Shown here: piece by piece, positions 4,306-56,734 of the stretch | Layout: every line of letters starts with the position of its first letter | Numbering within the stretch: position 1 is the first letter of the stretch | Virus genome (UHGV): UHGV-1372779 | Origin: a virus | Direction: 5' to 3' (one strand) | Length of the DNA stretch: 64,000 bases | The notes under the pieces: generated by a model | Told to the model about the DNA's origin: nothing | What the model saw: the letters and a program-made list of their open reading frames with translations, nothing else | Database searches by the model: none | Position numbers and translations under genes: made by a program

Positions 4306-5514
4306 TTACTCTACAGTACTAATAAATTCACCTTCATCCTTAGTATTATATAATATCTCTCTAACTAATAACTTCCCAGCCTCAATTGCAGCCTCATCAG
4401 TACCTTCTTTAAATAACTCTTCTAATCTTTCAGTCACCTTTGGTCTGAATATAATCTCATTCTTCTCAATCTCAGCTGCTTGTTTAGTGGAACCTCCTTT
4501 TTCCATTAGGACAGGGATTCCTTTGTTAGTGACTACTCCTTCAACATTGATGTTGTGTTTTCTGGCGTGTAATGCTCCGATTGGTAGGAGGTTTACATCG
4601 TTTTCTTTGTCTTTTAGATATTTTCTGTAATGAGTGATGAATTTGGCTCCTTTTTTCCCAAATGTTATATAACTATTACCTCCTAATATTCCGGACTGCT
4701 GAAGTTGTTTTCTATTATTAAACATATCAGTAGATGATGCTTGAATAGCTCTTTGGTCACTTGCTTCTCCTAGAATATCCTGTATTCCAGATTGCCAGAC
4801 CTTAGCTTGCCCAATTTTTTTATTAGCTTTCTTTCTAGCTCTGTTAGAAAGTAATCCATATTTTTTATTAGAATATTGCCCAGCCTTTTGAATATCTGCA
4901 CCTGTTCCTGTATAAGATGAATTACTTACAGCATTTTGGTCAATATCTATTGTATCTGTTTTCTTTCCAAATGCATTATTTACTAGTCCTAAGGCTCCTA
5001 AATTAAAAAAAGAGCTTCCTAGTATTGCATCAGTAGTAGTCATTTTATCTGTTCCAATTCCTACTTTTTCTAAAGCACTTCCTGCTAATTTACCAGCCTT
5101 CATTATTCCTCCTACAACCATTCCTGCAGGGCCAAAAGACATTGCTACATTAGAAATTGTATCATAAGCAGAATCAAGCCCTTGAGTTAGATTACCTTTT
5201 TTACCTGAATAATTTTTTTGGAAGACTTTAAAATTGGATAACATATCTAATCCAGCTCCTATAGCTCCCATAGGATTTGCACCTCCACCTGTTGCTCCAG
5301 TTGTTTCAGCAACTGAAGTAGTAGAGGTATTAATCCCTAATACGGAATTACCAAGATTTCTGAGTCTATCTCCTAAGGTAAAGTTAGGTTTAATAGAATT
5401 TAAACTTGCTCCTTGAGCAGCCATAGCATTTAAAGTTAAGGCTGGAGTTGTTGCTGTGAGTTGGGGATCTGTAAGAACCCCTCCCCACTGTAATTTAAAT
5501 ATTATATGTTTCAT
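4306..5514 (-). CDS. Gly-rich virion protein (402 aa), paralogue-like to the preceding gene.
   Basis: Similar Gly/Ala/Ser-rich composition; ATG/TAA overlap with the upstream 1556-aa gene at 5514. Confidence 0.45.
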   Translation of the reverse strand: MKHIIFKLQWGGVLTDPQLTATTPALTLNAMAAQGASLNSIKPNFTLGDRLRNLGNSVLGINTSTTSVAETTGATGGGANPMGAIGAGLDMLSNFKVFQKNYSGKKGNLTQGLDSAYDTISNVAMSFGPAGMVVGGIMKAGKLAGSALEKVGIGTDKMTTTDAILGSSFFNLGALGLVNNAFGKKTDTIDIDQNAVSNSSYTGTGADIQKAGQYSNKKYGLLSNRARKKANKKIGQAKVWQSGIQDILGEASDQRAIQASSTDMFNNRKQLQQSGILGGNSYITFGKKGAKFITHYRKYLKDKENDVNLLPIGALHARKHNINVEGVVTNKGIPVLMEKGGSTKQAAEIEKNEIIFRPKVTERLEELFKEGTDEAAIEAGKLLVREILYNTKDEGEFISTVE

Positions 5515-8500
5515 TAGTTATAACTTGGTGTATATATAGTTTGTATTGCTGTTATAATTGGCTTATTTTTACCATCATATTTAAATCTCACTCTCATAAA
5601 TTTATCCCTAGGTCTAATTTCCATGAATGGAAGATCTTCTACTGTTACATCTTCTCCATTTTCATAAGTTCTTCTATGAGCTCTCATAGGATCGATTTCT
5701 AAGTAGAATAAGTCTTCTTTATATACAGAATTTCCTAAGATATTTCCCCAAACCTTAATATCCCTAACATCCATGCTCTTTCTCATAGTATATTGGTTTA
5801 ATTTTCTATCTTTAAAGAATTCTGCATTTAATTGATCTAAATATAAAGGTTCTCCAGTATCATCATCATATTGAAGTTTTCCTTTTTTATAATATAATTT
5901 TGGATCGAAGGTTATAATATATTCTGGAACAAATTCTCCATCCTCTTCTTCTTTACCTAATGAAGAAGTGCTAAAATTAGGATCTGATTGATATTTATAA
6001 GAATTTTCTTTACAATTACTAAAAGCATAGGCATCTCCTATTACATCATAGAGAATCTCTACAGGAGGAACATTATTAGATAATATTTGAAAGTTGTCAA
6101 ATATTTTATGTCTGGCTCCTTCTTTATTAACTATAAATTCTAGTTCGAATGGATATTGTCTATCATACCACACACAGTTTTTAATCTCTGTTTGGTTGTC
6201 AATTATTCCTGCCACTCCATGTTTCCAGAAGTATGTAAGTTCATGAGGTTCTTGGAGTTCTGGTATATTATTTAAATAAGATAATCTAATAGTTAAAGTA
6301 TCTCTAAATACTTGTCCTGATACTTCTTTATCTTTATCCACTCCTTCTCTATTTATTTCTACCTCAATATCTAGAGTAGCATAATATTTTCCTTCCAAAA
6401 CATATTTTTTATAGGTATTTTCTGATTGTTTAAACACTATTCTACTTTCTTTGTCAGAAATAGCTTCTATATAAAAATCGTCATTATCATTAGTTTGTCC
6501 TTCATCAGGTTCAATAAATTTATATTTTAAAGATCTAACTTCATTTATATCAATAGAATCTAGCTTAAGACTTAATTCTCCAATTCCTATATCTTTAGTA
6601 TCAGAACTTAACTTAGGAAACTCAACTCCGGGATAAACTACTTCTCTTAGATAATTAGAACTGTATTTATCCCCAGAATTATCATAGCAATTTGATAAAA
6701 CAATTCCCCTCGAAGTGTAGCTATCACTCCAACAAGAGGAAACAGATGATATATTTTTAGCAGAGTCTTTATCATAACTAAAATAAATATTATTAATATT
6801 CTCAGATAATAAAGGAATCCAAGAATATCTGGTTGTCCACAAATTTAATTTTTCATTAAAGCATATATTCCATCCTATTGAATTAATATCATTTCCTAAA
6901 TTATCAGTAGATTTAATATCATCATAGAATGTAAACATTATATCATATTTAAATGCGTTATAATGAGATTTAACATTTCTTATTCCTAACAACGGAAGTA
7001 TTTCCTTTTCAGTTAAAGTTATATTATCATTTAAATAAGATTGTATTTTAAAGTCAGAAATGGTTTCAAAAGATCTTCCATCTGTTCTCCAAATTCTCTT
7101 CCCTACTGTATCTACTCCATATACAAATCTTTCTGATTTAACTATAGAGTCCTTCCATTGTGATCCAAATGTCTTAGACAACATTGTAGGTCTTTCTGGT
7201 AATACTTTATTAGAGTTAATAAAAACCTCTTCTTTATTTTGCCCTTCTCCTAATGGAACTTTTTCATTAACTGGTAATATTCCTACTCCATGTTCAAATA
7301 CTACCAATAAATTGCTATACCATTCTAATATATCAGTTATGGCTCCAAATTCTTTGTTATAATCACTATAATTATTTAATCTAAATATTCTATAAGAATT
7401 TTTAAAGGCATCGGTAGTATATATATCTGAATATATTATTCTATTAGATAGCTCATTTTTTATATAAGGAACATCGGGGAGGATAAAGTTATTCTTCTCA
7501 GAAACTGTGGAGTTAAATCCTGCATTAAATAAAGTAGAGTCAGGAATTTTATAAGATCCATCAGATTGAAATCCATTTATAGGAGCAAAAGTTCTAGGAT
7601 GGCCTACTAACCCCATCTCTGATCCATTAGAGTCATCTTCTACTCTAAGAGATAAATTTATATTGCTCATACATTTAAAGGTTACCCAGTGTCCTATATT
7701 TACAGCATTAACATCTCCTCTATTTATCTCAGCACATTCTTCTAAATCTAAAGCTCCATTTTCAAATCCTGAGTAATGATCTTTCCATGTATTTTGGTTT
7801 ATAAAATCACTGTTAATGGGAGCTTCTGGATCTTGAAAATTCCTACACATTCTATGAGTAAAGTTTCCAATGAAACAATCTCCTCTATAGCAGACAATAA
7901 AATCATCTACAAATCCATATTCTGTTCTATCACATATAGGATAAAAGGGATCGGTTATATTACCTCTTATCTTAAAATAATCCTTTAAAGAATTTTCATT
8001 ATAACCATATGTAAGCACATTGAATATACTTAAAGGATCATTATATCCTTCTATTCCTACATAAGGCCCCCATTCTCCTCTTAATAAATTAGTAGCACTC
8101 TTATTAGGATTTTCTGATTTTAAGTAAGATACTCTATAAGCTTCTTCAGCAGCACCTGCTCTAGAAGAGAATTCCATAGTTCCAGAAGAAGAAAGTTGTA
8201 CACTATCTCCAACATAGGTTAAAGTAGATGTAGTTAAATATTCTGAAGTATTACTAGTATATCCATTTACATAATAGTGCCTAGAATTTTCAAACGAAGG
8301 TTCTAAAACATCGTTCTCTGGCTTAATAGGAGCAGCTACAACTTCATAAGGTATGGCAGAAAATAATTGTGAATATAATTCAGAGTTTAATTCTGCTTCC
8401 GGAATTATTGCAGCATTTATGCCGCAGGAGTCAATAGTTCTTAATCTGTCCTCAAATTCATGATCTAGTACTCTTTCATTAGTTAAAAATGATTCCGTTA

Positions 8501-10184
8501 TATATGTGTATGTTTGTCCTTCTTTTCTAATAGGAATAACAGGAAGATTAGATCCTGAGTCTAGTCCTATAGTTAATCCTTGACAGAGGATAGTTGGAAT
8601 TCTTTTTTGTCTAACTATAAAGAATCCTTTAGTATATTTATTAAGTTCTTCAATAACAGAATTATTAAATGTAAACTCAATTCCTATAGGATAAATATTC
8701 TTCGATGATGAATCTATAATGGGTCTAGAATCTATTTTAACCACTCCTTTACCATTCTCTAGTTGTACTGTTCCATTAGTGGATTTTAAAAATCCATCCT
8801 CATCTAATTCTATATATTTTCTATCTCCACTTACTGAATCATATATATCAAAATTAGTAAAGTCTGGAGAATCTGTTAATACTCCTCCCCTAACATTAAA
8901 TACTGGAGATAATGTATAGTTATTTAAAACATAGACTATTCCAAATCTATACAAATCATTCCAATATCCTAGCCTAAAATATATATTGTTAGGATTAGTG
9001 TATTCACCAGAATTAGAAGAGTTAGAAACATCTAAATATTGTTCATTAATATATCCTATAGACTCTTCTCTATATATTTTGGGGCATATTCTAAGACTTA
9101 AATCAGCTAATTCTTCATAAGGAATATCTGTTTTAGCAACATTTCCAAAAAATAATCTATTTTGTACTTGAGCTTGACCTTTTGCCTTAGAAATTATATT
9201 ATAAGTAGTATTTATTTCATCTAAAGAAATATCTATAAAAGGCTCTAGTCCTGTTATTATTATATGAGCTGATCCAGCTGTTATAGTAAACTTTGAATCA
9301 ACTATATAAGCTGAAGTTAGTCTACTTTTGTTATATGATCCAGTAGTTCTAGTACAATATACTTTAACATAATCATAAGTAGAATCTATATTAGTTAAAC
9401 TAAAAGCTACATATTTATCTGATATTGAATCAGATATATTTCCCTTAGGAGAAGTAGAACTTCCTGAGAAAATACTTACTATTCCAGATTCCCCTACAAA
9501 ATCTGTTTCGTTTCCATCAGAGTCCTCATATTTAAAGTAGAATACATAGTTACCTACTTTCAATTGTCCTCCTGATCTTGTTCCCAAGAATTGAATTTTT
9601 GGTATTTTGTTTATTATTTTATATAATCCTGCATCCCCTTCTAAGGTATCTTCATCATATATATTAGTATCATTATTTCCCGCTCTATCTACTACTTGAT
9701 ATTGATTATTTTCAGTAACAGAAAATCTACTATTTATCAGTTTAGGAGTATTTAAATCATCTGTTAGTATAAGATTAACAGATCCATCATAAGATGGTTG
9801 ACACTCTATATCTACTGGATGGTTTATATCTAAATTTAATTTTTTTGTTCTAAAATCTATTAACTCATTAGCATAATTTTTAATATATAAATGCCCAGAT
9901 TTTGGAGCTTCACCTGGATCAGCTGGTTCTATTGATTTATAATCTGATTCGCTTAGCTCTGAAATATTTTGAGTAGTTATATATTTACCATTTACTATTA
10001 TTGGTTGTGAATTTAGATCTAAATATCTTCCAGTTGTATTTTCTATGAGATACTTGTCTTCTGAAGATCTCATACATAATAAGGGATTATATTCATAACT
10101 TAGGAATCCCTTAACTGGCTTTATTTTGTATGCTACACTAAATACTAGACTTAGTGAGTTTAATATTTTGAAATCTGGAGCCAT
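5514..10184 (-). CDS. Very large virion structural protein (1556 aa).
   Basis: 4.7-kb uninterrupted ORF; beta-rich, N/S/T/Y-rich composition typical of tail or baseplate proteins; translationally coupled to its neighbours. Confidence 0.6.
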   Translation of the reverse strand: MAPDFKILNSLSLVFSVAYKIKPVKGFLSYEYNPLLCMRSSEDKYLIENTTGRYLDLNSQPIIVNGKYITTQNISELSESDYKSIEPADPGEAPKSGHLYIKNYANELIDFRTKKLNLDINHPVDIECQPSYDGSVNLILTDDLNTPKLINSRFSVTENNQYQVVDRAGNNDTNIYDEDTLEGDAGLYKIINKIPKIQFLGTRSGGQLKVGNYVFYFKYEDSDGNETDFVGESGIVSIFSGSSTSPKGNISDSISDKYVAFSLTNIDSTYDYVKVYCTRTTGSYNKSRLTSAYIVDSKFTITAGSAHIIITGLEPFIDISLDEINTTYNIISKAKGQAQVQNRLFFGNVAKTDIPYEELADLSLRICPKIYREESIGYINEQYLDVSNSSNSGEYTNPNNIYFRLGYWNDLYRFGIVYVLNNYTLSPVFNVRGGVLTDSPDFTNFDIYDSVSGDRKYIELDEDGFLKSTNGTVQLENGKGVVKIDSRPIIDSSSKNIYPIGIEFTFNNSVIEELNKYTKGFFIVRQKRIPTILCQGLTIGLDSGSNLPVIPIRKEGQTYTYITESFLTNERVLDHEFEDRLRTIDSCGINAAIIPEAELNSELYSQLFSAIPYEVVAAPIKPENDVLEPSFENSRHYYVNGYTSNTSEYLTTSTLTYVGDSVQLSSSGTMEFSSRAGAAEEAYRVSYLKSENPNKSATNLLRGEWGPYVGIEGYNDPLSIFNVLTYGYNENSLKDYFKIRGNITDPFYPICDRTEYGFVDDFIVCYRGDCFIGNFTHRMCRNFQDPEAPINSDFINQNTWKDHYSGFENGALDLEECAEINRGDVNAVNIGHWVTFKCMSNINLSLRVEDDSNGSEMGLVGHPRTFAPINGFQSDGSYKIPDSTLFNAGFNSTVSEKNNFILPDVPYIKNELSNRIIYSDIYTTDAFKNSYRIFRLNNYSDYNKEFGAITDILEWYSNLLVVFEHGVGILPVNEKVPLGEGQNKEEVFINSNKVLPERPTMLSKTFGSQWKDSIVKSERFVYGVDTVGKRIWRTDGRSFETISDFKIQSYLNDNITLTEKEILPLLGIRNVKSHYNAFKYDIMFTFYDDIKSTDNLGNDINSIGWNICFNEKLNLWTTRYSWIPLLSENINNIYFSYDKDSAKNISSVSSCWSDSYTSRGIVLSNCYDNSGDKYSSNYLREVVYPGVEFPKLSSDTKDIGIGELSLKLDSIDINEVRSLKYKFIEPDEGQTNDNDDFYIEAISDKESRIVFKQSENTYKKYVLEGKYYATLDIEVEINREGVDKDKEVSGQVFRDTLTIRLSYLNNIPELQEPHELTYFWKHGVAGIIDNQTEIKNCVWYDRQYPFELEFIVNKEGARHKIFDNFQILSNNVPPVEILYDVIGDAYAFSNCKENSYKYQSDPNFSTSSLGKEEEDGEFVPEYIITFDPKLYYKKGKLQYDDDTGEPLYLDQLNAEFFKDRKLNQYTMRKSMDVRDIKVWGNILGNSVYKEDLFYLEIDPMRAHRRTYENGEDVTVEDLPFMEIRPRDKFMRVRFKYDGKNKPIITAIQTIYTPSYN

Positions 10185-10185
10185 C

Positions 10186-13100
10186 TTATTTATAGATTAA
10201 GTTCATTGTCTGGAATGACTTTGTTCCGTTATTTCCTATAGAAGACAGGCACTTAGAGATTAATGAATTAGTATTACTATCATTAATTATTGGAGCTATA
10301 TAAGCATTTAATTTATCACTTCTTCCTGCCCCCATAACAATTCCATTATTTCCACTAGAACTAAGTGTTAAAGTTTTTCCATTAACTATGAATAGAGTTT
10401 TAGTAAAACTTGATCCATTTTTAAAGTATAAATAATTATCAGCAGGAGCACTCTCATTTAAATCATGATTATAATCAGTTAATTCTCCCACTATTCCAGA
10501 AATAGTCATGGTATCTCCATCTTTTATTAGATAAAATTTAGATCCTAATAAATCAAACTCTTCGTTAATAGATAAATTAAATTCAAAGCTATCTTTATTA
10601 TAAAAATTACCAGTGAAATATTTGTCATTAGAATTAAATACTAAACCTATATTTGTAATTTCATCTTTCAAAATTATATTTTTTAAAGATTCATAAAAGT
10701 CTTCGTTTAAGGAAGTTTTATTGTTTTTAAACATAGTGACAATCTCAAATCCAGAAACGTTACATTTAGCTATACCTATATTTTTGAATAAAAACTTAGT
10801 ACTCAAGCTAGGAGAGTGTTGCACTTTCGTATTTATATCTGGGACATACATTTCTACTTCCTGAGAACTATTTTGTTGTACATAGGATAATTCGTAAAAC
10901 TTATTTGCAAATGAGCTTATAGCGTTACTCATTCTTAAATCCTTAACAACATCATTATCTACTAGATAGAAATCTGAAGAAATTCCATAATTAGCTTCAC
11001 TATAACTACTAAATTTTCCTTTCACAAAAGGAACTATTCTTACATAGTTTTGAGTATTATATTTACTTTTTTCTCCTATTTCTGGAACATCATACGTTAC
11101 CTTATTTCTAAACGAAGAAGCCCTTCCCCATGCTCCTTTTTTTCCATTTTTATTTTGTATAGCCAAATTAGCAAATATAAAAGGTTTTTGCATACCAGAG
11201 AAAATTCCCTGCTGACTTGTTTTTACAGATACAACCCCATTTTTTTGAATATCTGATTCAGATTTTGGATTTCCTTTTATTCCTGATGCTCCATCAGAAT
11301 CTACTCCAGCAAATTGATCCAAACTGTAAGTGGCTTTATAGAGAGTAGATCCACTTTTTATACTATGAATCTCTAATCTGAAAAAATCATCTTGATGAAT
11401 ACAGTTATTTTGAAAATCCTCTCCACTATCATATATTTGTTTATACTCATTTAAATATTTTGTGAATTTACTTAATCCGCTGTTACATTGTATAGCTCTA
11501 TTTGATCTAAGATTAATATTTACATTAAACTTTGTCCCAGATTCGGCAATAGGTGTACCTTTAGATATAGTAGTGTTTATGCTTTCTACCTCAGATCCGG
11601 TAGCCAAATCCGTGTTATTATCCTCCTCTATAGAGACTCCGCTCACTGAGACCTCTTTAGGATTTAGAATAGCTTGTCCAAATTTTAATTCCCCATATCC
11701 TTTCAGTACTGTATTGTTTGGAACTATGTTAGCTTGAAATGTTTTACTAATTTCACCCTTTACCAATATTCTAGTATTGTACTTAGGAGAACTACTTTTC
11801 TCTGGATCTATAACTATTTCATCATAACTTTGATAAGAATAATTTTCTAAATCAGTTTTAGATAATGCTGCAGGAAGCAGATTTTCCTCACTCCAAGCTG
11901 CTTGAGTAGAGGTAGACTCCATAGAAACAAAATTAGGTATGGATAATGTATTAAAATTCACATCATCTTCCCAGTATTTGTTAAATACCCCAGTAGTCCA
12001 TAAAAAGTTATAAGAAACATACTTATGACACTTTAATTCTTCTTCATTGTTATAAAAATCTAATCCTACTATAGCAACAACATAAAAATTATTCTTCCTT
12101 AACTTACTATTTTCTTTACCTAGATTTATCCCTAAATTATTATACCTAGTTGTATTTCCAAATAGACTCTCTACTTTATAAGCTACTGGTATATTATAGT
12201 TAGAATTAAGTTTCTTAGATAATGTATCTAGATCAGTATACCCAGATGAGTCATCATTATCTATTTTCCCTAAAGCAGCATTATATACTTCTTTATAAGT
12301 TTTATCTATTAATACATAATAATCATTTGATGTTACTAAAGATTGATCAAGTCCCCCTGTTGAGGTCATTTCTGGATTTTGTCCAACAAAACAATCTAAG
12401 GTTATGGTTTTTACATCTTTAATATCAGTAGAGTAGAACATAGAAGTATTACTTATAATATCATAAAACTCTATATAAACAGCATCTACTTTATTTCTTT
12501 GATTCTTAGTCCCTCTAACTATAAACTCATAGAATATTCTCATTTTATCAGAAGTTATCTCAGAATCTAAAGATTCATCTAAATAGTACTTCCAGAATGT
12601 GGATTCCTGAGCTGTAGTTAGTATATTATAATTTATAATATTAGAATATTTTAGATTGGATAGGTAGCCAAATGCAGAATAAGGTTTTATTTCCAGTGAA
12701 ATATTCTTATCTATGTCTTTATTAGATATAGTATGTTCTATTTCAACATGTTCTGCTCCATAAGATACATTGGAAGAACCTGAAAAAACCCCTTCTATAT
12801 TTTCTGTTGTTAAATATTTTTGATCTGCCTCTGCTAATTCAGAATCTAAATCATCAACTTTTACTTCTAGACCAATCACATTATTCATACATTGATTAGT
12901 CACATCAGAAGATGCTTCTATGTCAAAGCTGAATGTATTTGCATCTATTGCATCTTTATGTATATTAGTTATATCTAACGAAAAATTATCTACCTGTTCT
13001 AATTCCAAGGATAACATTAGATAACCATTTAGTTTATTATTATAAACAGCATATAAACTTCCTTCTGAATCATTTAATAACTCTGATTTAGTATAATAGA

Positions 13101-15523: not shown

Positions 15524-15676
15524 TATATCCTTTTAATATTTTAGAATAATGATATTTTCCACATTTAGAGCACTTCCAAATTGATCTTGAATTTAATAGA
15601 TTGACCTCATCTCCATATATATTCCTAATAAATATATTATAATTATGTTTACAAAATAATTGTTTTAAAAATTTCA

Positions 15677-16393
15677 TTATCTTGGAGGAGTTTGGTGATC
15701 AAGGTTTATTGGAGTTGCTAATTGGCGATACCATCTGACTTTTTTCTCTGTTAACCTTCTCTTGATATCATTAGCTATAGAATTGAAGTTTATAACATCT
15801 CCATTATTACAACAAGAGAATCCCAAGACTTGTCTAGGATCTTTAAATACCGCTATAATTGTTACTGTTTTTAATAAAGGAACATTAAACAAGTAACAAT
15901 CATACATATTATTTTCATTAGGTGTAGTATCTATATAAACATAAGGTTTTCTTCCTACCCATCTATCATATTTGTGATATTGATAAGATATATCAGTATA
16001 TACCTTAAATGGAGTTTCTCTATCAATAGTCCCAAAATAATCCACAGCTAAAGATCCTAAATCATTCACAATTTGTGGAATCTCTACATGGGGAATCTCA
16101 GTTTGTTTAAATTTAGATCCTATCCCACATATTCCACATTTTTCTATAGGCTTACAATCTACTTCTAAACATGTTATTGAGGTATATAAATCTTTATATG
16201 GAACTAATCCTTTAATAGCATATTCTTTAATAATAGTAAGCCTCTCATCTATTATATCATCCTCTAACTGTTCCATAGAAATTCTAGGATTAGAGGATAA
16301 TCCAGATAATCCAGCTATTATATCATTATATATAGCACTAGATAATTTGTTTAGCCAATCAATTTGCATATTAGTATATAAAATTAAAGGCAA
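15677..16393 (-). CDS. Hypothetical protein (238 aa).
   Basis: ORF track. Confidence 0.45.
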   Translation of the reverse strand: MPLILYTNMQIDWLNKLSSAIYNDIIAGLSGLSSNPRISMEQLEDDIIDERLTIIKEYAIKGLVPYKDLYTSITCLEVDCKPIEKCGICGIGSKFKQTEIPHVEIPQIVNDLGSLAVDYFGTIDRETPFKVYTDISYQYHKYDRWVGRKPYVYIDTTPNENNMYDCYLFNVPLLKTVTIIAVFKDPRQVLGFSCCNNGDVINFNSIANDIKRRLTEKKVRWYRQLATPINLDHQTPPR

Positions 16394-19611: not shown

Positions 19612-19664
19612 TTATTTAATAGTATATAAATAAAAATCTGTAGAGAAGAATATGGTTATATTAT
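19612..19664 (-). terminator. Rho-independent terminator after the capsid-candidate gene. It has a 10-bp perfect inverted repeat (ATCTGTAGAGA...TCTCTACAGAT) followed by a T tract on the minus strand and is also T-rich on the plus side.
   Basis: Seen directly; it lies immediately 3' of the stop at 19688. Confidence 0.55.
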
Positions 19665-19687
19665 CTCTACAGATTTATCTTAAATTT

Positions 19688-20578
19688 TTATTTTCTTCTT
19701 CTGTTTTGTTTAAATATTACAGATCTATAAGGAGCATATACGGTGATTCCAGAATATCCCCAATAGATCATCTTAGATCCTGCAACTGGAGTAGAAGCAG
19801 TACCTCCCTCAAGACCAGTTAGACCTCCAACACCTTTAACATCAGTTTTGATCATATCAGCTCCCTTGAATGTCCAAGACTCAATAGCTGGTTTACCATT
19901 AGCTAAATCTGGTGTTAGATCTAGTATAAATCCAAATGCTTCATCTGGATACTCAACATCTAAAGTTCTATCAGGCATGAAGGTAATAAAGTTACCTGCA
20001 TATTCATAAGATGTAAATGTAGCTCCAACTCTAACTCCAGGAACACTTTCACCTATTGATTTCTTAGTTCCAGAAACTTTAGAATACATTAAAGTATTAG
20101 AAGGATTCCACTTAGCAATTTCATTCATCAAGTTGTCATTAACTTGTCTCCACATTAGAGAGTTACAAACAACAGTGAAATCATTACCAGTCAAGTTATC
20201 AGTCTTACTTGTCATGAAGTTAATTGCTTCCTTAAAGTGAGTTACTAATAACTGATCAAATGTGATAACATAAGCAAATCTTTCGATTTGTGGTATAATA
20301 CCATCACCAATATAAATTGGTCTGTTAGTTTCTGGATCTGTAATAGTAGGTTTACCATTAACGTCTACATTGGATCTAGCAAATAGATCATGCTTACTTT
20401 TAACTTCTAAGAAGTTATCAATTAAGGTTTTCTCCATACTAGTCATGGTAAAGTATCTTTCACTTCCATGAGTTTCAGTATCAGAGATTTTTAAGAATAC
20501 ATCCTCATTAGCTAAATAAGCTTGAGAAGCATCAATATCATTTCTGTGTAGAGTCAGATAATTACGATGCGTCTCCAT
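19688..20578 (-). CDS. Putative major capsid protein, exon 2 (ORF as given; the true 3' splice site is within about 40 nt upstream of 20578).
   Basis: It lies downstream of a group I intron whose S element and P9 sit at 20611-20643. The two exons sum to about 490 aa. A scaffold-like gene lies upstream and a strong terminator downstream. Confidence 0.45.
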   Translation of the reverse strand: METHRNYLTLHRNDIDASQAYLANEDVFLKISDTETHGSERYFTMTSMEKTLIDNFLEVKSKHDLFARSNVDVNGKPTITDPETNRPIYIGDGIIPQIERFAYVITFDQLLVTHFKEAINFMTSKTDNLTGNDFTVVCNSLMWRQVNDNLMNEIAKWNPSNTLMYSKVSGTKKSIGESVPGVRVGATFTSYEYAGNFITFMPDRTLDVEYPDEAFGFILDLTPDLANGKPAIESWTFKGADMIKTDVKGVGGLTGLEGGTASTPVAGSKMIYWGYSGITVYAPYRSVIFKQNRRRK

Positions 20579-20589
20579 GTTTGATTGGT

Positions 20590-21630
20590 ATTTCGTATCA
20601 TTTATGTTAGCTCTATATTACTATAGAGATCAGACTATATCTTAATCTTATTTAATTATACTATAAATACTTAAATATAAATCCTTTACAACTGTTTCTT
20701 TCTCCATTTAGAACTTTTTTAACATTTGCATATCCTGCTTTTCTGCAGTCTCTCAAACATTTAAAAGTTTCCAAAAGATTACCATCAATATCATACTTAC
20801 CAATTGGAATATTCTCATATTTATGATTGGTTTTATTTCCAATTCTTTCTCCAGTATATTGTTTTTTCTTAAACTTCTTCATAAAAGGAAGTTTTTCATA
20901 AGAAAATTGATAACCATGAAATTGATGTCCTTGTTTGATGCTTCTAGGAAGATGCCCAGCACTAACATTTAAGTACTTTGCTGCATCTGTTACAGTTTCA
21001 AATTCTTTAACAAATTCTCCTTCTAGATCATACATATAAACTTTTACCTTTAAAATCTCAGGGCATCCACCTTCACCTCCGAGCTTTATATTATATGTAT
21101 CTTCTCTTTTTATATATTCTTCTGTAACTAACTCAGATTCTAATTTATAAGCCTCTTCTTTATTATCGAATATATTCAGAGTAATTCTTTTAAATTTGTC
21201 TATGCCATATTTATTAACTGCACATTGAAAAGGAGTTTTACTCTTTTTATAAGTTGCAGGTCTATTAATAAACACACCATTTCCTAAATATCCATCAAAT
21301 TTATCAGGATTTAACGTCTCATGAACTCCTATATATTGTTTATTGTTCACCAGACAAATTGTCATATACACTAAGTATTTTTTCATATTTTATATAATTA
21401 ATAAGATTTTCCCCATTTCGAACTTATGAATCTAAGTCCTACTCCTTTCGGATAGTCGTTGAACGTTCTCTAGCACTTCTAAAATAGCTTGTGTACTCTA
21501 GAGCTTCGCTGCTGATTGTCTTTAGATATACCAATTCTAAAGAGTTTCCAGCAATTAAAGGAATTTTTCTTACAACTTCCTCTGTTAAGCTACCAATGAA
21601 CAGATGTATATTGTAAGGGAGCTACTTTTT
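20590..21630 (-). mobile_element. Group I (IA-like) self-splicing intron carrying a GIY-YIG homing endonuclease ORF; the boundaries are approximate.
   Basis: Conserved core elements lie in the canonical order on the minus strand. They are P AATTGCTGGAAA (rc of 21545-21556), Q AATCAGCAGC (rc of 21508-21517), R GTTCAACGACTA (rc of 21453-21464), then the homing-endonuclease ORF, then S AAGATATAGTCTG (rc of 20631-20643), then a P9 hairpin CTCTATAGTAATATAGAG (20611-20628). Confidence 0.7.
20661..21386 (-). CDS. GIY-YIG homing endonuclease (intron-encoded, I-TevI/SegE-like).
   Basis: N-terminus KYLVYMTICLVNNKQYIGVH...R..E...N (GIY-YIG motifs); the ORF is embedded between the intron R and S elements. 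Confidence 0.7.
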   Translation of the reverse strand: MKKYLVYMTICLVNNKQYIGVHETLNPDKFDGYLGNGVFINRPATYKKSKTPFQCAVNKYGIDKFKRITLNIFDNKEEAYKLESELVTEEYIKREDTYNIKLGGEGGCPEILKVKVYMYDLEGEFVKEFETVTDAAKYLNVSAGHLPRSIKQGHQFHGYQFSYEKLPFMKKFKKKQYTGERIGNKTNHKYENIPIGKYDIDGNLLETFKCLRDCRKAGYANVKKVLNGERNSCKGFIFKYL

Positions 21631-22172
21631 AACCCCTGGTCGTGATAATCATAAGGATGAGCATTAGATAAGAAGTGAGTAGTCATTCCTGGCTTACATG
21701 CACTTAAATCTAAGTGTTGTTTTCCATCATTGTCTACAAGAACACAAGTGTATTCAAAATATTGATTAGTTCTCCAAAGAGGTCTTCTTGTTACATATAA
21801 TTGTTGATGAGAACCATCTATAACAAAGATGTCATGTTTTTCATAATATCTTTCTTTTAAAGGTATAATTATCTCGGTATTTCCAACACCGTCTCCAATA
21901 GGTTCTCCTGCAATTTCAATTCTCTTAATGAAATTAACATTAACATCCCATTCTATACAGAATGCATTAATGCTCTTAGTTCCTTTCTTTGGAATATCTT
22001 GGTAAACTAAATTTCCTAATTTATCTACCAATGTAGAAACGGTATGATTTTTGCAAAGGGAAGCAGCTAATCCTACTCTATGTTTAGCTCTTCCTAAAAA
22101 TTGTGAAAAGTCATGATATGTCCGTGATCCAGACACATTGGCTCTATTACTGATGTATTCAGCTACAAACAT
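21585..22172 (-). CDS. Putative major capsid protein, exon 1 (the ORF as given reads through into the intron; the true 5' splice site is probably near 21625-21645).
   Basis: The ORF's C-terminal tail (…LKSSSLTIYICSLVA) is encoded by intron sequence upstream of the P element, and the gene directly follows the scaffold-like gene. Confidence 0.4.
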   Translation of the reverse strand: MFVAEYISNRANVSGSRTYHDFSQFLGRAKHRVGLAASLCKNHTVSTLVDKLGNLVYQDIPKKGTKSINAFCIEWDVNVNFIKRIEIAGEPIGDGVGNTEIIIPLKERYYEKHDIFVIDGSHQQLYVTRRPLWRTNQYFEYTCVLVDNDGKQHLDLSACKPGMTTHFLSNAHPYDYHDQGLKSSSLTIYICSLVA

Positions 22173-22203: not shown

Positions 22204-23316
22204 TTATTGTTTAAGTTTAAACAACATACTTAGATCATCCTCATCAGATAGTACTGATGTGCTTTTAACAGTTACATTTGATTTTGGACTAGGTTTGTTG
22301 TTTCCCTTAGGGTTGGATGGATTTTTTAAATTTTGTATTTCTTTATCTTTTTTAGATAATTCACTCATATAAGCAGTGTGAAGATTTTGAAGTAGCTCAT
22401 CACCATGTGCCATGAAGAAGGCCATCTTAAATAACTTTTCAGGGTTATTTAAATCCATTGCCAATTTACTAGCCCCATTTAAGGTAGGTTTAAACGCATA
22501 ATCATAAGTAGAAGTTAAATCTCTATCTTCAAGATCTACACCAGAGAAGTTTTTATATTTATTGCCAGCTTCTTTAAAAGAATTTAAGAATTGCTGTTGT
22601 TCTTCTGTGGTAACTTGTTGATTATTTTGATTATTTTGTTCTTCAAGTTGTTGCTGTTCTAATTCTTTATAAATCTCTCTAAGTCTTTCAACTTTTTTAG
22701 TGAACAGATTAGGATTTTCTTTAGCTCTTTCTACTTCATCATGAATTTCTTCATCTGTCCAATCTTCATATCTCTCTTTAAGATCAAAAGCTAGAATCTC
22801 TTCATCAGAGAGATTATCTACACTGAATTGAACATTATTATCAAGATATTCTTGAATACCTTGTTGTTTATAGTAGTTAATCATTTCCTCTTGAGATAAC
22901 TCATGCTCTCTCATAAATGATATTAACTGTATTTCATCTTTACTTAAATCATAATCTTCATTTGGGGAAGTATTTAAAATTTGTAGCTTCTCCTCATTGG
23001 TCAATTCATCAAATGATTTGGTAACTATTGCTCCAAAATCATTTTCTATTTTAATATTATTAGGATCTTTAAATCCTCTTGCCTTTAGTGCCTCAGTAAT
23101 TAAATCAAATTGCTCTGTGGCTACAGGATTAGATGGATCGGGATTGTTTCCATCTTGGTTCTGTGGATCTGGTTCAGTTGGAGGTTCTGGATTAGAATTA
23201 TTTCCTTCTTGTGAACCATCTGGAAGATTTGTCAGTAATGAAGGATCATTTCCATCAGGATTTGGTTCTCCTTTACCTTCTTCTAATCCTAATAATAAAT
23301 CTAAATCATCATTCAT
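22204..23316 (-). CDS. Scaffolding-like protein: acidic, Gln/Glu-rich coiled coil, 370 aa.
   Basis: Highly acidic low-complexity N-terminus, a central coiled coil (EEQNNQNNQQ...), and a position immediately 5' of the capsid candidate. Confidence 0.4.
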   Translation of the reverse strand: MNDDLDLLLGLEEGKGEPNPDGNDPSLLTNLPDGSQEGNNSNPEPPTEPDPQNQDGNNPDPSNPVATEQFDLITEALKARGFKDPNNIKIENDFGAIVTKSFDELTNEEKLQILNTSPNEDYDLSKDEIQLISFMREHELSQEEMINYYKQQGIQEYLDNNVQFSVDNLSDEEILAFDLKERYEDWTDEEIHDEVERAKENPNLFTKKVERLREIYKELEQQQLEEQNNQNNQQVTTEEQQQFLNSFKEAGNKYKNFSGVDLEDRDLTSTYDYAFKPTLNGASKLAMDLNNPEKLFKMAFFMAHGDELLQNLHTAYMSELSKKDKEIQNLKNPSNPKGNNKPSPKSNVTVKSTSVLSDEDDLSMLFKLKQ

Positions 23317-28124: not shown

Positions 28125-28445
28125 TCACCCTTCTAGTGCTGCAACTCTTGCTTCTAAGCTAGATACCTTAGAAGCTAAAGTCTGAAGTAATTCTTTATCA
28201 CTATTAGTATAATCATTAGAAGATAGTCCTTTACCAGATACCTTATCCACCTTACCTTCTTCTAACTCATTAGTCTTATTAGTAAATTTAGTGTCTAAAT
28301 CATCTATAGACCCTTCTAACTCATTCTTAGTATCTTCAATAATTTCTAAAGTCTCATCTTGGTTGGAGTTTATCTTCACTACCATATCCCTCAGATTATC
28401 TCCACCCTGATTGTTTGCTAATCTTCCTAAAATAAGTTTATTCAT
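28125..28445 (-). CDS. Small protein carrying the conserved tail-fibre N-terminal anchor motif plus one fibre repeat (GKGLSSNDYTNSDKE).
   Basis: Its N-terminus ILGRLANNQGGDNLRDMVVKIN parallels the N-termini of the 30130-32406 and 32436-39128 fibre genes. Confidence 0.5.
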   Translation of the reverse strand: MNKLILGRLANNQGGDNLRDMVVKINSNQDETLEIIEDTKNELEGSIDDLDTKFTNKTNELEEGKVDKVSGKGLSSNDYTNSDKELLQTLASKVSSLEARVAALEG

Positions 28446-28448
28446 ATC

Positions 28449-28811
28449 TTAATTTATTCCTAATTCTGCACAATCAGAATCAACTATAGATTTAATTTCT
28501 GCTCTTATATTCAAGAAATCTAAATATTTCTGAATATAAGATTCATCTAATAACCCCTCTTTCGCAGAGTTATAATCATTGATTAATTTCTTTTCATCTT
28601 CGTTAGTCCAAATGGACTCAATTGCTGCTTTTAAAATAGTATCACTATCTGGTTGTCCATAGAATACAATCTCATTACATTTATATTGAGTTGCAGGCTC
28701 TTCACCTTCTTCTCTCTCAACTGTAATTTGTTCTATGCCCCATCTATAGAAATACTTATTATTAACTATTTTTTCTAATTTTTCAGGCTGAAAGTCATAA
28801 TATGCGTTCAT
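28449..28811 (-). CDS. Hypothetical acidic protein immediately 3' of the DGR RT, overlapping its stop by 17 nt.
   Basis: ORF track. It is acidic, so it does not resemble Avd. Confidence 0.4.
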   Translation of the reverse strand: MNAYYDFQPEKLEKIVNNKYFYRWGIEQITVEREEGEEPATQYKCNEIVFYGQPDSDTILKAAIESIWTNEDEKKLINDYNSAKEGLLDESYIQKYLDFLNIRAEIKSIVDSDCAELGIN

Positions 28812-29808
28812 AATCTTGTCTAATTAAATGTTTCGGATTATAAATTTTGTTTAATAAATTCTGTGAATTACAATGTTTAGCCCAACTCCTATAACTAGAC
28901 ATTATCATTTTATATTGTCTGTAGCATAAGTATCTTTTATTAGTTCTAGCAGCTAATTTAGCAAACTTCTTCTTTGTCTTTTTTCTTAACAAAGTATGAG
29001 TATGCCTAAATACATATCCTACAAAGTCTATTCCTCTTATGGCAACAGGAAAGACTTGATAATTTTGTTTAACAGTTAATTTTAATGTTGCAAGATATTC
29101 CTTGATTTCTATTAATAAGTTATGAAGAAATTCTTTATTAGAATGTAATATAACTATATCATCGGCATATCTGTAATAAAATTTAACTCCTTTGACTTCT
29201 TTCAACCAATGGTCAAAATATGCTAAGAATAAATTAGCAAAGAATTGTGATAGATAGTTACCTATAGGAACCCCAGGTGCAGAGTCTATTATCTCATCTA
29301 ATAGAGATAATAGTTTTTTATCCTTTATCTTTTTCCTGATTATCTTCTTCAATATATCATGATCTATTGAAGGATAGAATTTTTTAATATCAAGTTTAAG
29401 ACAATATTTAGTTTCCTCTACATTTTGTCTAAGTTCTTTTTTTAATTTTCTAACTATTCTATGTATTCCTCTGTTTTTAATACAACTATATGTATCAGCA
29501 GTGAATACAGAAACCCAAATTGGCTCCATGATATTCATTATAGCATGGTGTACTATTCTATCTGGATAATATGGAAGCCTAAAGATTTCTCTTTCTTTAG
29601 GCTCATATATTTTAAATATTTTATATTCTGAGGTTTTATATGTACCAGATTTTAATTGTTCATGAAGTTTAAGAATATTTTCTTTTCTATTCTTATCATG
29701 TTTCATTACTCCAAAACTTCTGGTTTTGCCCTTTCTAGCTTTAGAATCAGCTAACTCTAGGTTTTCTATACTAATTATTTGCTCAAATAAATTATTGATT
29801 CTTTTCAT
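28795..29808 (-). CDS. Diversity-generating retroelement (DGR) reverse transcriptase.
   Basis: YADD catalytic box (YRYADDIVIL); the DGR-specific motif VPIGNYLSQ (I/LGxxxSQ replacing the group-II QGxxxSP); the TR lies immediately upstream and the VR is in the adjacent gene. Confidence 0.85.
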   Translation of the reverse strand: MKRINNLFEQIISIENLELADSKARKGKTRSFGVMKHDKNRKENILKLHEQLKSGTYKTSEYKIFKIYEPKEREIFRLPYYPDRIVHHAIMNIMEPIWVSVFTADTYSCIKNRGIHRIVRKLKKELRQNVEETKYCLKLDIKKFYPSIDHDILKKIIRKKIKDKKLLSLLDEIIDSAPGVPIGNYLSQFFANLFLAYFDHWLKEVKGVKFYYRYADDIVILHSNKEFLHNLLIEIKEYLATLKLTVKQNYQVFPVAIRGIDFVGYVFRHTHTLLRKKTKKKFAKLAARTNKRYLCYRQYKMIMSSYRSWAKHCNSQNLLNKIYNPKHLIRQDYERIL

Positions 29809-29974
29809 ATTTTTGTTTTCTAATGGGAACTTTCAAATTGCATTTGCATTGCAATTACTACACTATGGTATTTTTGCACTGTTGCACTTTTACTAATACC
29901 CTCTGAAGGGTTTATTTTTTGCCAAGAGGCAAGGCCTTCACAAGTATATATTAGTTTTTGATATTCTTGAAAAC
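29809..29974 (-). ncRNA. Spacer between the DGR TR and the RT, with several short hairpins; candidate structured RNA element of the TR transcript.
   Basis: Non-coding, contains GC-rich hairpins (TTGCCAAGAGGCAA; CCCTCTGAAGGG; TGCATTTGCATTGCAA), and lies between the TR 3' end and the RT start. Confidence 0.4.
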
Positions 29975-30083
29975 ACTAAGCTGGCCGCTGACATTGGCAT
30001 TGGCATTAGACACGCTGTTGTTCGAATTACAGTAGCTGAAACTGGAGTTGGCACTGTTATTACAAGAGCTACCAAGCAGCAAC
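29975..30083 (-). repeat. DGR template repeat (TR), 109 bp.
   Basis: 89 of 109 bases identical to the VR. All 20 mismatches fall at plus-strand T, which is adenine on the coding (minus) strand. In the VR frame the TR encodes runs of AAY (Asn) and AGY (Ser) codons. Confidence 0.85.
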
Positions 30084-30129
30084 AAGGTTGTGAACAGCCT
30101 ATATTATATTGTTTTTAACTCATAATATT

Positions 30130-32406
30130 CTAGATTAGGTAACAAAGCCGGCCGCCGACATCGGCATAGGCAGCAGACACGCCGCGGTGCGAATAACAGT
30201 AGCCGAAACCGGAGAGGGCACCGCTATAACAAGAGCCACCAAGCAGCAACGTACGCAAGCTACTTGAGCTTATAGATGTATAAAAATAATCACACCAATA
30301 AGTAGTAGAACCTCCACCATTATCAGAAGGAGCAAATTCACCATTCTCTCCAAAGATTAATTTAGTCACATAACCATCTTTCCTTGGGACATTTCCAACT
30401 TTAGTGAATCCTTCTAAGGTATCTCCGAATTTAGTTTTATCACTAGTTGTATAGAACTCACTTGTGCCTCCATCAGCATCAGTTTTAATATCAAATATAG
30501 CTCCTTCTACATTAGTCCAAATATGACCAAAAGGATTCTCAATTCCTCTATATCTACAACAAGCTAATGTAGTAGGAGTATCAACCTTATAATCATCTGG
30601 AAGATTTACAATAACTTCTCCAGATCCAGATGCCAATGAGTTAGATGCTCCACATTTTAACATTGGATAATAGCTATTATAAGCACTCCAATCAGAAGAA
30701 GCTAATGTAGTAGCTCCATTTCCTAAACCACCTTGCTTATATCCTTCAGCAGTTAGTTCTGAATTAACAGCAGCCTGGCAGTTTCTGTTAGCATATTCTA
30801 CATAATATAACCAGAATACAGTCTTCCAAGATTCATAATCCATTTCATTCCAATTATCCCCTCTATTTCTAGCTCTAGTTCTCATAGTAGCTCTAGTCAT
30901 ATATGTAGCACATTTTCCTAATTGAGATTTAGATAAAGTATCCCAATCAGCTTGATTGTTTCCACCTCTATATTGTTCTGTTTCATTACATACAGAGGCT
31001 AGTTTATTATTAGTTCTATCTAAAGCAGCTTCATAAGCTCCTACATAGACCTTAGGAACTTTAGTAAATCCAGTACATTTACCTTCTGATAAGTAACATC
31101 TTCTAATATTACCGTCTTCTTCAAATTTTCTGTAATGTTCTGGTATTTCTATCATAACTTGTCCATCAGTTCCATCTAGATTAGATGCTTCTCCTGTGAT
31201 TTTCTTACTCCAATCATTAGGATTTAAGTAATAATTTACACTTCCATCATCATTTAAAAGACAAGCTTTCATTTTAGATTGAATAGGCAGAGATTTATGT
31301 AATGACATATCTCCTATTCTTGTACAAGTTGGATCAGATACAGTAGTATCCCATTCTATACCATAGACTTTGTTTAGATAAATCTCTCCTTCTGAGTTAA
31401 ATGAGAAATCAGAGGATAATTTAACTGCTCCTAGAGTAGATTCTGTTGCAGGTCTAAGGTTATCATTAACTGTATCTTCTATATTATCTAACATTGATTT
31501 ATAATTATTCGAAAAGTCATTGGTGGAAAGAGATTTACCTTCGACTTTATCTACTTTATTTCCTAGTTTAGTTGTTAATTCAGCATTGGTGTCTAGTTCA
31601 TCTAATTTAGTTTTTAGATCATTAGTGAAGTCATTAGTTGATAATGATTTACCATCAATCTTGTCCACTTTGTTAGATATAGTTGCTACTAGATTCTTCT
31701 CAGCTGTTGTATAATTGTTATCAGAAAGAACCTTAGAACCGTCTTTATCGACCTTAGTTTCTAAATCAGATTCAATAGTTGCAATCTTCGCAACTTGTTC
31801 TTTTTCTGCTGTAGTATAATTATTATCTGATAACACTTTTGATCCATCCTTATCTACTTTTGTGTCTAATTCAGTATTAATTGTACTGATATTTTCATTG
31901 ATTGTGTCTATATCACCTTCTATAGTTGAGATGTTTCCCTCTATAGTTGTAATATCAGATTCAATAGTAGGAATTTTGTTTACATTTGTTTTATCTCCAT
32001 CAGAGAAGTTATTATCTGATAATACTTTGTCTCCGTCTTTATCGACCTTGTTAGCTAAAGTTGTTTCTATGTTAGAAATTTTAGCTACTTGTTCTTTTTC
32101 TTGATTTGTATAATCATTAGTTGAGAGACCTTTTCCTTCTATTTTATCTACTTTAGTATTTAGTTTTTCTTGTGTTAATTGCTCTAAGTCAGAGATAGAA
32201 TTATTAACTGATGTTTCTAGATCATTTAATTTCTTATCAGTGTCTTTTTCTAGATTAGAGATACTTTCAGTGACTTCTTTTTGTAGTTCAGTAACTTCCT
32301 CCTTAGAAGCTGTTTCTGAAAGGTTTCCATTTAGTTTAACTACAATGTCTCTTAAAGTATCTCCTCCCTGATTATGGGGAGGGATACCAATTTTAAATTT
32401 TTCCAT
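30130..32406 (-). CDS. DGR target: tail fibre or receptor-binding protein. It has the N-terminal anchor motif, multiple phage-fibre repeats (GKxLSxND(F/Y)Tx), and a C-terminal C-type-lectin/FGE-like fold containing the VR.
   Basis: The VR lies within the last 37 codons. The C-terminus (…TTYWCDYFYTSIS…LLLGGSCYSGALSGFGYCY…) is typical of DGR CLec-fold variable proteins. Confidence 0.8.
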   Translation of the reverse strand: MEKFKIGIPPHNQGGDTLRDIVVKLNGNLSETASKEEVTELQKEVTESISNLEKDTDKKLNDLETSVNNSISDLEQLTQEKLNTKVDKIEGKGLSTNDYTNQEKEQVAKISNIETTLANKVDKDGDKVLSDNNFSDGDKTNVNKIPTIESDITTIEGNISTIEGDIDTINENISTINTELDTKVDKDGSKVLSDNNYTTAEKEQVAKIATIESDLETKVDKDGSKVLSDNNYTTAEKNLVATISNKVDKIDGKSLSTNDFTNDLKTKLDELDTNAELTTKLGNKVDKVEGKSLSTNDFSNNYKSMLDNIEDTVNDNLRPATESTLGAVKLSSDFSFNSEGEIYLNKVYGIEWDTTVSDPTCTRIGDMSLHKSLPIQSKMKACLLNDDGSVNYYLNPNDWSKKITGEASNLDGTDGQVMIEIPEHYRKFEEDGNIRRCYLSEGKCTGFTKVPKVYVGAYEAALDRTNNKLASVCNETEQYRGGNNQADWDTLSKSQLGKCATYMTRATMRTRARNRGDNWNEMDYESWKTVFWLYYVEYANRNCQAAVNSELTAEGYKQGGLGNGATTLASSDWSAYNSYYPMLKCGASNSLASGSGEVIVNLPDDYKVDTPTTLACCRYRGIENPFGHIWTNVEGAIFDIKTDADGGTSEFYTTSDKTKFGDTLEGFTKVGNVPRKDGYVTKLIFGENGEFAPSDNGGGSTTYWCDYFYTSISSSSLRTLLLGGSCYSGALSGFGYCYSHRGVSAAYADVGGRLCYLI
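30142..30250 (-). repeat. DGR variable repeat (VR), 109 bp, ending 9 nt before the target gene's stop codon.
   Basis: Position-by-position alignment with the TR; the 3' end is GC-rich (GGCGGCCGGCTT). Confidence 0.85.
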
Positions 32407-41915: not shown

Positions 41916-41940
41916 AATTTAAAATAATTTAAAATTAGAC

Positions 41941-41994
41941 ATAAAAAAACTATCTTCGCGCTATTGATCGTTTTCAATAGTACAAAGATAGTTC
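41941..41994 (-). terminator. Terminator-like hairpin (AACTATCTT…AAGATAGTT with an inner stem, then T7) after the DnaA-like gene.
   Basis: 9-bp outer stem followed by a T run on the minus strand. Confidence 0.4.
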
Positions 41995-42000
41995 ATTTTA

Positions 42001-42309
42001 TTAGGATTTTAAATTATTTTCTATCTGCAATTCACACATGCGATATTTTGTATAGAAGTCTTTATCTAAGCCTTTAAGTGATTCACATTTGTTTACTGAT
42101 CTAATGATTATACTATGATGTTTATCATAGTATCTTGATAATCTATAGAAGGAGATGTAGTACTTAACATGCAATATGTGGAATAATACACTCCTTGCAT
42201 CAGTATGAGATCTAAATTTTCTATTTCCTCTAAGATCTTCTAGAGTTATATTGAATACTTTACAGACTATTTCTTCTATTTTAGGAATAAGGTTCATATT
42301 CTCATTCAT
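42001..42309 (-). CDS. DnaA C-terminal (domain IV)-like helix-turn-helix DNA-binding protein.
   Basis: The pattern LEDLRGNRKFRSHTDARSVLFHILHVKYYISFYRLSRYYDKHHSIIIRSV resembles Bac_DnaA_C. Confidence 0.4.
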   Translation of the reverse strand: MNENMNLIPKIEEIVCKVFNITLEDLRGNRKFRSHTDARSVLFHILHVKYYISFYRLSRYYDKHHSIIIRSVNKCESLKGLDKDFYTKYRMCELQIENNLKS

Positions 42310-42330
42310 AATATTATAAGTTTAGATGAA

Positions 42331-42404
42331 TATTAAATTACTCCCTCAATGTCAAAAAGATTGTATTAAATTACTCCCTCAATGTCAAAAAGATTGTATT
42401 TAAT
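42331..42404. repeat. Tandem direct repeat of a 33-bp unit (TATTAAATTACTCCCTCAATGTCAAAAAGATTG), 2.2 copies, upstream of the DnaA-like gene.
   Basis: The copies at 42331-42363 and 42364-42396 are exact, followed by a partial third copy. Confidence 0.8.
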
Positions 42405-42444
42405 ATAGATTAATGTTATAATATATGATGAGATATGATATTAA

Positions 42445-56731: not shown

Positions 56732-56734
56732 TTC

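Follow-up and report, generated by a model that had tools for sequence, protein, structure and literature searches.

A 64,000-nt stretch of the virus genome UHGV-1372779 (hereafter the window) carries three consecutive open reading frames (ORFs) on its minus strand, 22172-21585 (195 amino acids), 21386-20661 (241 amino acids) and 20578-19688 (296 amino acids). The question raised by this locus is whether these are three separate genes or one gene with an interruption that is removed from its RNA. A first-pass annotation had proposed a major capsid protein gene split by a group IA-like intron with a GIY-YIG homing endonuclease. The analysis reported here leads to the same answer: very probably, the capsid gene of a crAss-like gut phage is interrupted by a group IA ribozyme intron, which is spread by its endonuclease. 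This reading is supported by the RNA core, an exactly placed junction, an endonuclease gene that is intact and under selection, and both presence/absence and replacement polymorphism at the site. The coordinates of all features are collected in Table 1.

If the flanking ORFs are parts of one gene, joining them should yield one recognizable protein. A join after U21632 and after G20599 combines 541 and 911 nt to an ORF of 483 amino acids with the junction ...YHDQG-Y-TKYQSNMETH.... In Pfam this spliced protein matches Crass_capsid (PF23898) with 49.8 bits (cut-off 27; residues 94-379, profile positions 103-380), and the match is continuous across the junction. By itself the exon-2 ORF reaches 31.3 bits, and no match was obtained for the exon-1 ORF alone in Pfam or PHROGs. 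In a tblastn comparison the spliced protein aligns with MT835470.1 as a single piece (residues 1-478). Protein searches returned the uninterrupted protein P0001 (482 amino acids; 87% identity, 100% coverage, gapless) and hundreds of crAss-like capsid homologues of 470-476 amino acids, and the motif GY(T/V/I)KYQSN is kept in full-length homologues with a gap-free junction. The flanking ORFs are therefore predicted to be the two halves of one crAss-type major capsid gene. A different arrangement, in which a free-standing homing endonuclease gene lies between two independent genes with neither intron nor splicing, would be in keeping with the many free-standing Seg-like GIY-YIG genes in phages, and with an extra endonuclease ORF found between two ring-protein genes in the related locus L005 as compared with L004. 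We regard it as highly improbable because the flanking ORFs match successive parts of one capsid family and single uninterrupted genes in relatives, and because a complete group I core flanks the endonuclease ORF.

The splice sites of the predicted intron can be fixed to the nucleotide. U21632/G20599 is the sole in-frame join obeying the U/G rule of group I introns that restores both the conserved protein sequence and the empty-site DNA. The spliced DNA at the junction, GACCAGGGGT followed directly by ATACGAAATACCAATC, equals the intron-less allele in the related locus L003, GATCAAGGTTATACAAAATATCAATC, base for base; the predicted ligated-exon junction reads GACCAGGGGTATACGAAATACC, and the empty-site sequence of the L003 type includes CATGATCAAGGTTATACAAAATATCAATC. 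Applied to the related loci with an intron at the capsid site, the same rule gives intact frames of 482-484 amino acids in all eight. The ATG at 20578 that is used by gene callers lies 20 nt inside exon 2. Removal as an intein or as a group II intron, or a circumvention during translation by recoding or bypassing, deserves mention in view of the inteins and stop-codon recoding described for the same phage group in passages of Yutin et al. 2021 (PMC7886860). It is nevertheless hardly credible at this locus: the exons and the endonuclease ORF do not form one continuous reading frame and are separated by stop codons, neither a reverse transcriptase nor a group II RNA match is present at the capsid locus, and group I rules are obeyed by the U·G pair of the 5′ splice site as well as by the terminal G.

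With these boundaries, several details of the first-pass annotation can be settled. Its combined product of about 490 amino acids comes out at 483, and the intron span it had given as 20590-21630 is corrected to 21631..20599. Alignment to intron-less capsid homologues, which it had suggested for placing the splice sites, did place them, with a gapless junction. It had also recognized correctly that the C-terminal tail of the upstream ORF stems from the intron, this tail being the last 15 residues (LKSSSLTIYICSLVA) of the 195-amino-acid ORF, and that gene callers would report two capsid fragments and a free endonuclease; public gene calls on related contigs indeed list two capsid fragments, of about 194 and about 295 amino acids, and the endonuclease ORF. 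The strong terminator it expected after the capsid gene was found as a hairpin with a 13-bp stem (-18.1 kcal/mol, z -4.96) and a U-run, which a simple terminator scan overlooked because the loop is long. The upstream neighbour it called scaffold-like (ORF 22204-23316, 370 amino acids) gained no database support from Pfam or PHROGs.

At the RNA level, cmscan with the Rfam group I intron model RF00028 (gathering score 50 bits), confined to 20400-21800, yielded two matches, one at 21572-21408 (42.2 bits, E 4.9e-9, model positions 42-158, from P3 to P3′) and one at 20645-20613 (27.5 bits, E 1.2e-4, model positions 219-251, comprising J8/7, the P7 3′ strand and P9). They are co-linear and exactly bracket the 241-amino-acid ORF. 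Relative to the model, 35 nt are inserted after the 5′ strand of P7 and before the 3′ strand of P3, and they are taken up by P7.1 (UCC-GAAA-GGA) and P7.2 (GGACUUA-GAUUCA-UAAGUUC). These two helices define subgroup IA, and their position between P7 and P3′ places the predicted intron in that subgroup. Further helices are P3 (UUCCUU/GGGGAA), P4 (UGCUGG/UCAGCA), P5 (UCUUUAG/CUAAAGA), P6 (CUCUAG/CUAGAG), P7 (GACUA/UAGUC) and a P8 of 16 pairs which holds the ORF in its loop. At the 5′ splice site the last five exon bases pair with the internal guide sequence to form P1, in which the splice-site U is wobble-paired with a G (U·G); P1 is longer in the minimum-free-energy fold, GGGGUUA/UAGCUCC, which also recovers P2, and a hairpin structurally equivalent to P2, with different sequence, exists in L004. 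Thus the order P, Q, R, ORF, S and P9 that the first-pass annotation had read on the minus strand was located in full, its group IA-like core is backed by the two-part match from the covariance-model search it had advised together with P7.1 and P7.2, and its peripheral loop is that of P8.

To count structural conservation, five related intron cores were aligned, with the ORF swapped for a short loop and P7 treated as a pseudoknot. Standard pairs occupy 96.1% of the cells, a share that falls to 35-48% once the 3′ sides of the pairs are shifted by 1-3 columns. Compensatory changes occur in ten pairs, distributed over P3, P5, P6, P7.2, P8 and P9. P7.1 and P7.2 are both paired to 100% in the five sequences (one compensatory pair in P7.2), while P4 and P7 are invariant and thus uninformative for covariation. 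On this evidence the minus-strand segment 21631..20599 is predicted to be a group I intron with a P3/P7 pseudoknot and core helices supported by covariation. The P...Q motif was met in at least 120 contigs of IMG/VR and hence appears widespread in phage contigs; these matches were not used further.

The ORF in the P8 loop has the domains of a homing endonuclease, as had been proposed. Pfam recognizes GIY-YIG at the N-terminus (25.4 bits, cut-off 22.6), NUMOD1 (47 bits, cut-off 22.8) and I-HmuI_NUMOD-like at the C-terminus (29.8 bits, cut-off 27), and PHROGs assigns it to phrog_314, "homing endonuclease" (E 2.1e-28); the match to SegE_GIY-YIG is weak, with 16.8 bits against a cut-off of 25. Compared with the copy in L004, its ratio of nonsynonymous to synonymous substitution rates (dN/dS) is 0.10, comparable to the value of about 0.08 for the capsid exons of the same two loci, and the ORF is therefore maintained by selection. 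From this ratio and the exon polymorphism described below we infer its putative activity at the capsid site.

A number of points weigh against the reading of the locus as an active intron. Splicing and its autocatalysis are what we infer from the sequence. Both RF00028 pieces stay under the gathering score, and scans of the whole window with Rfam (at gathering scores and at E<=0.01) reported no group I intron. Both results have one cause: the 726-nt ORF in P8 interrupts the model, which alone keeps each piece below 50 bits and leaves the whole-window scans blank at the capsid locus, so that the scores reflect a limit of the model and no core element is absent. P10 is weak, with only 3 bp between UAC of exon 2 and GUA. 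The five sequences of the covariation sample represent about three lineages, and distal P8 was drawn by hand. Finally, a phmmer search of the endonuclease against PDB sequences returned nothing at E<=1. A rival reading is a decayed relic that no longer splices, leaving a capsid pseudogene or a capsid made of two polypeptides; in its favour, splicing is a prediction, both Rfam scores fall short of the gathering score, and each flanking ORF has its own ATG and stop codon. A relic of this kind is, however, improbable. All core helices are intact and show compensatory changes across lineages, nine loci including the window keep their exon frames intact across the join, and the dN/dS of the capsid exons is about 0.08. 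Within the capsid protein the junction falls into the stretch of highest conservation, adjoining the invariant residues E189, H191 and R192, and conservation also covers the (Y)TKYQSN residues ahead of the downstream ATG, even though this stretch would remain untranslated if two proteins were made.

Comparison with related loci bears on the mobility of the predicted intron. The same intron, 1,027 nt long and with an endonuclease of 243 amino acids, occupies the same site in L004, L005, L006, L009, L010 and L012, on contigs of up to 182,872 bp, and the site is empty in L003. In L007 and L008 a sibling intron of 1,187 nt is found, with a GIY-YIG endonuclease of 277 amino acids that is 57% identical to the window type. 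It is inserted 1 nt further upstream (GGT/TAC, phase 0, as against T/AT, phase 1, in the window) and lies directly upstream of the capsid exon-2 ORF (2241-3128 in L007, 2732-3619 in L008). Its P3-P9 core is similar to that of the window type and its P1-P2/guide region is unrelated; the minimum-free-energy fold of the L007 5′ end gave no convincing P1, and the P1 of the sibling intron is a proposal of 4 bp. Despite their different introns and endonucleases, L004 and L007 have capsid exons that are 99.5% identical, and six of the seven differences are located at -14, -11, -8, -5, -2 and +1 from the insertion site, all six at third codon positions. The intron-less L003 and the intron-bearing L012 are 96% identical overall, and the final 600 nt or so of the gene contain no mismatch. 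This combination of presence/absence, replacement and exon differences gathered around the insertion site fits homing with co-conversion, and the polymorphism at an identical site and the clustered differences are indirect evidence for a mobile intron. It is also conceivable, at slightly less than even chances, that two sibling intron/endonuclease lineages contest the capsid site and, if the replacement was recent, that they exemplify a retargeting by one nucleotide. In such a case the P1-P2/guide module would have been swapped and the endonuclease would have diverged around a shared P3-P9 core, and the six exon changes at -14 to +1 could serve both as guide matches and as cleavage immunity. 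In searches at the nucleotide level, megablast of the capsid locus against GenBank phages gave no matches, and blastn of the 5′ half of the intron hit unrelated phages only at conserved core segments, about 30-68 nt long.

Further endonuclease ORFs were seen in the related loci. In L013 (4001-6676) the site used in the window is uninterrupted and the capsid gene is broken after about residue 388, where a NUMOD-type endonuclease ORF of 317 amino acids and an ORF of 96 amino acids follow; this suggests a second intron insertion site in the capsid gene. The extra ORF of L005 (10917-11699) encodes a NUMOD-type endonuclease of 260 amino acids between the genes for tail ring protein 2 and ring protein 1. 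It is missing from the counterpart 10908-11072 in the near-identical contig L004, as well as from the corresponding segment of the window (15524-15676), and may be free-standing or intron-borne.

Taking the capsid intron as the preferred reading, the following course of events is proposed. The capsid gene would be transcribed from the minus strand as one pre-mRNA from 22172 to 19688, in which the 1,033-nt RNA would fold as a group IA ribozyme in the order P3-P4-P5-P6-P7-P7.1-P7.2-P3′-P8-P7′-P9. An external guanosine would attack after U21632, and in a second step the freed exon would attack after the terminal G20599. Ligation of ...GAC CAG GGG U to AU ACG AAA... would give the mRNA for the crAss-type capsid protein of 483 amino acids. 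The endonuclease most likely cuts intron-less capsid alleles during co-infection, and repair from the intron-bearing copy would transfer the intron together with a short flanking exon tract, that is, by homing.

Table 1. Features of the capsid locus and of other elements in the window (positions of the window; intron features are predictions)
Feature	Position	Strand	Remarks
Major capsid protein exon 1	21632..22172	-	541 nt = 180 codons + first base of Tyr codon
Last five bases of exon 1, GGGGU	21636-21632	-	P1 5′ strand
Group IA intron, 1,033 nt	20599..21631	-	5′ splice site after U21632; terminal (omega) G = 20599
Internal guide sequence GCUCC	21618..21622	-	P1 3′ strand; G21622·U21632 wobble
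P2 hairpin CUUACAA...UUGUAAG with inner helix	21569..21617	-	Minimum-free-energy fold
P3 5′ strand, P4 ("P" and "Q"), P5 hairpin	21508..21563	-	P3 5′ strand 21563-21558; P5 21543-21519
P element AATTGCTGGAAA	21556-21545	-	
Q element AATCAGCAGC	21517-21508	-	
P6 CUCUAG...CUAGAG	21468..21503	-	RF00028 match; two compensatory pairs
R element GTTCAACGACTA	21464-21453	-	Within 21409..21464; includes P7 5′ strand (21457-21453)
P7.1, P7.2, P3 3′ strand	within 21409..21464	-	P7.1 21452-21443; P7.2 21439-21420; P3 3′ strand 21414-21409; 35-nt insertion P7/P3′
P8 5′ strand	21393..21408	-	Pairs with 20660-20644
Homing endonuclease ORF, 241 amino acids	20661..21386	-	In P8 loop
P8 3′ strand and S element	20631..20660	-	P8 3′ strand 20660-20644
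S element AAGATATAGTCTG	20643-20631	-	J8/7 + P7 3′ strand UAGUC (20637-20633)
P9 hairpin CUCUAUA-GUAA-UAUAGAG	20611..20628	-	Two compensatory pairs
Major capsid protein exon 2	19688..20598	-	911 nt with stop codon
Terminator-like hairpin	19634..19676	-	3′ of capsid gene, then U-run
Terminase intron, 1,052 nt	56745-57796	-	Exons 57797-58617 and 55070-56744
LAGLIDADG ORF, 260 amino acids	56914-57696	-	Inside terminase intron
Diversity-generating retroelement	28795-32406	-	Reverse transcriptase ORF 28795-29808
RT-17 RNA match	29840-29936	-	39.4 bits; gathering score 40.4
Template repeat	29975-30083	-	
Variable repeat	30142-30250	-	

A second interruption of this type is indicated in the large terminase gene of the window, whose exon ORFs (58617-57772 and 56731-55070) match successive parts of one terminase profile. 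Joined after U57797 and after G56745, they would encode ...LKSRG-I-GWSEMGACLGV..., whose counterpart in the alignment is the uninterrupted ...LKARGVGFSEIAASLGV... in MT835470.1, and with this join the Walker-A region, ...LKSRGIGWSEMGA..., regains the form that it has in uninterrupted homologues. A search of the terminase intron with RF00028 found nothing even at E<=10. Terminase relatives from IMG/VR show a core consisting of P3, P4, an ORF in the P5 region, P4′, P6, P7, P3′, P8 and P7′; among seven sequences nine pairs are compensatory and 95.8% of the cells are paired, compared with no more than 59% in slid controls. P1, too, shows covariation with the exon (GGGAU/GUCCC, GGGGU/GCCCU, GGAGAU/GUCUCC, GGAGU/GCUCC). 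These data support the prediction of a group I intron in the terminase gene. Several variants of this family were observed in related loci. L144 (about 2469-2800) retains the terminase-type core with the LAGLIDADG ORF almost wholly deleted and thus represents a natural mini-intron, and in L141, L142 and L143 this ORF is cut by in-frame stops, which could reflect decay or the stop-codon recoding reported for the phage group. In L137 and L142 the same intron family is present at other positions of the terminase gene, 4 nt downstream and in the C-terminal region.

The window also contains a diversity-generating retroelement (DGR), the variable repeat of which lies at the 3′ end of a gene for a tail protein of 758 amino acids (32406-30130). 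The 25 template-repeat adenine positions that differ are all changed in the variable repeat, and the repeat core is without other differences. Within this target gene, at 31495-32155, degenerate 64-nt direct repeats occur, with one copy near 28191 (28191-28254); the seven copies of the family are 61-73% identical to the reference copy and probably encode a repeated protein domain. Two tandem copies of a 35-nt unit, aatacaatctttttgacattgagggagtaatttaat, are located at about 42330-42405 on the minus strand, upstream of a small ORF that lies between the ORFs 40980-41915 and 42445-47667, and no RNA family matched this region. A further intron considered at an S-like sequence (42265-42275) in the 530-nt gap between these two ORFs (41916-42444) was rejected, as there was no RNA match and the gap contains the small ORF and the tandem repeat. 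Other genes recognized in the window are those for the muzzle protein (5514-10184), ring protein 2 (15677-16393), a P22-like portal (52635-54851) and the crAss-like large terminase.

The capsid intron is an instance, well resolved, of a published phenomenon. It leaves the understanding of group I introns and of crAss-like phages unchanged and adds one case, dissected in full, to the introns already known from large crAss-like phages. Its practical weight lies in annotation: standard callers split the capsid gene into an ORF of 195 amino acids, a "free" endonuclease and an ORF of 296 amino acids, Rfam at default thresholds is silent on the window, and the exact splice sites restore a capsid protein of 483 amino acids for taxonomy and structural work on crAss-like phages. 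Moreover, with an allele whose site is empty and a sibling intron that competes for it, homing is open to direct test.

According to passages of PMC7886860, crAss-like phages in the Delta group and, above all, in the Zeta group have many group I introns and inteins, detected for the introns through endonuclease protein domains, and the capsid gene is named as a typical intron host, with one capsid gene in five fragments. The host gene family, the kind of element and the kind of phage are thus the same as in the window. For the capsid intron, RNA structure, splice sites and insertion positions are not given in these passages, whereas in the window the boundaries, the helices, the position of the ORF in P8 and the empty-site allele are defined. 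The Zeta group, which we equate with the large-genome family of 145-192 kb in the passages of PMC7886860, is described in PMC12386605 (2025) as having endonuclease genes that vary and, within the structural block, a DGR cassette. The window likewise has a DGR in the structural block and several endonuclease genes. Judging from its relatives of about 183 kb and its gene content rather than from phylogeny, the window phage would belong to the Zeta group.

Among the classical systems, the td, nrdB and sunY introns of phage T4 belong to subgroup IA2 and are associated with I-TevI and I-TevII. The capsid intron resembles them in its group IA core with P7.1/P7.2 and near-consensus P, Q, R and S elements, in a GIY-YIG ORF looped out from a peripheral helix, and in the signs of homing with co-conversion of flanking exons. 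It differs in its host gene, which is structural in the window and concerned with nucleotide metabolism in T4, in the place of its ORF, which lies in P8 in the window and in P6 or P9.1 in the T4 introns, and in the composition of its endonuclease from GIY-YIG, NUMOD1 and I-HmuI-type NUMOD-like parts. The N-terminal 105-125 residues of this enzyme share 44-52% identity with ORFs of T4-like phages that carry the annotation Seg-like or SegD homing endonuclease. Unlike the Seg-like enzymes, it is encoded by the predicted intron, and its C-terminal DNA-binding half is unrelated to theirs, the matches covering less than 70% of the query. A known phage intron of IA type that encodes an HNH nickase shares with the capsid intron the residence in an essential gene and the possession of a homing endonuclease, while the endonuclease family, the host gene and the phage lineage differ between the two.

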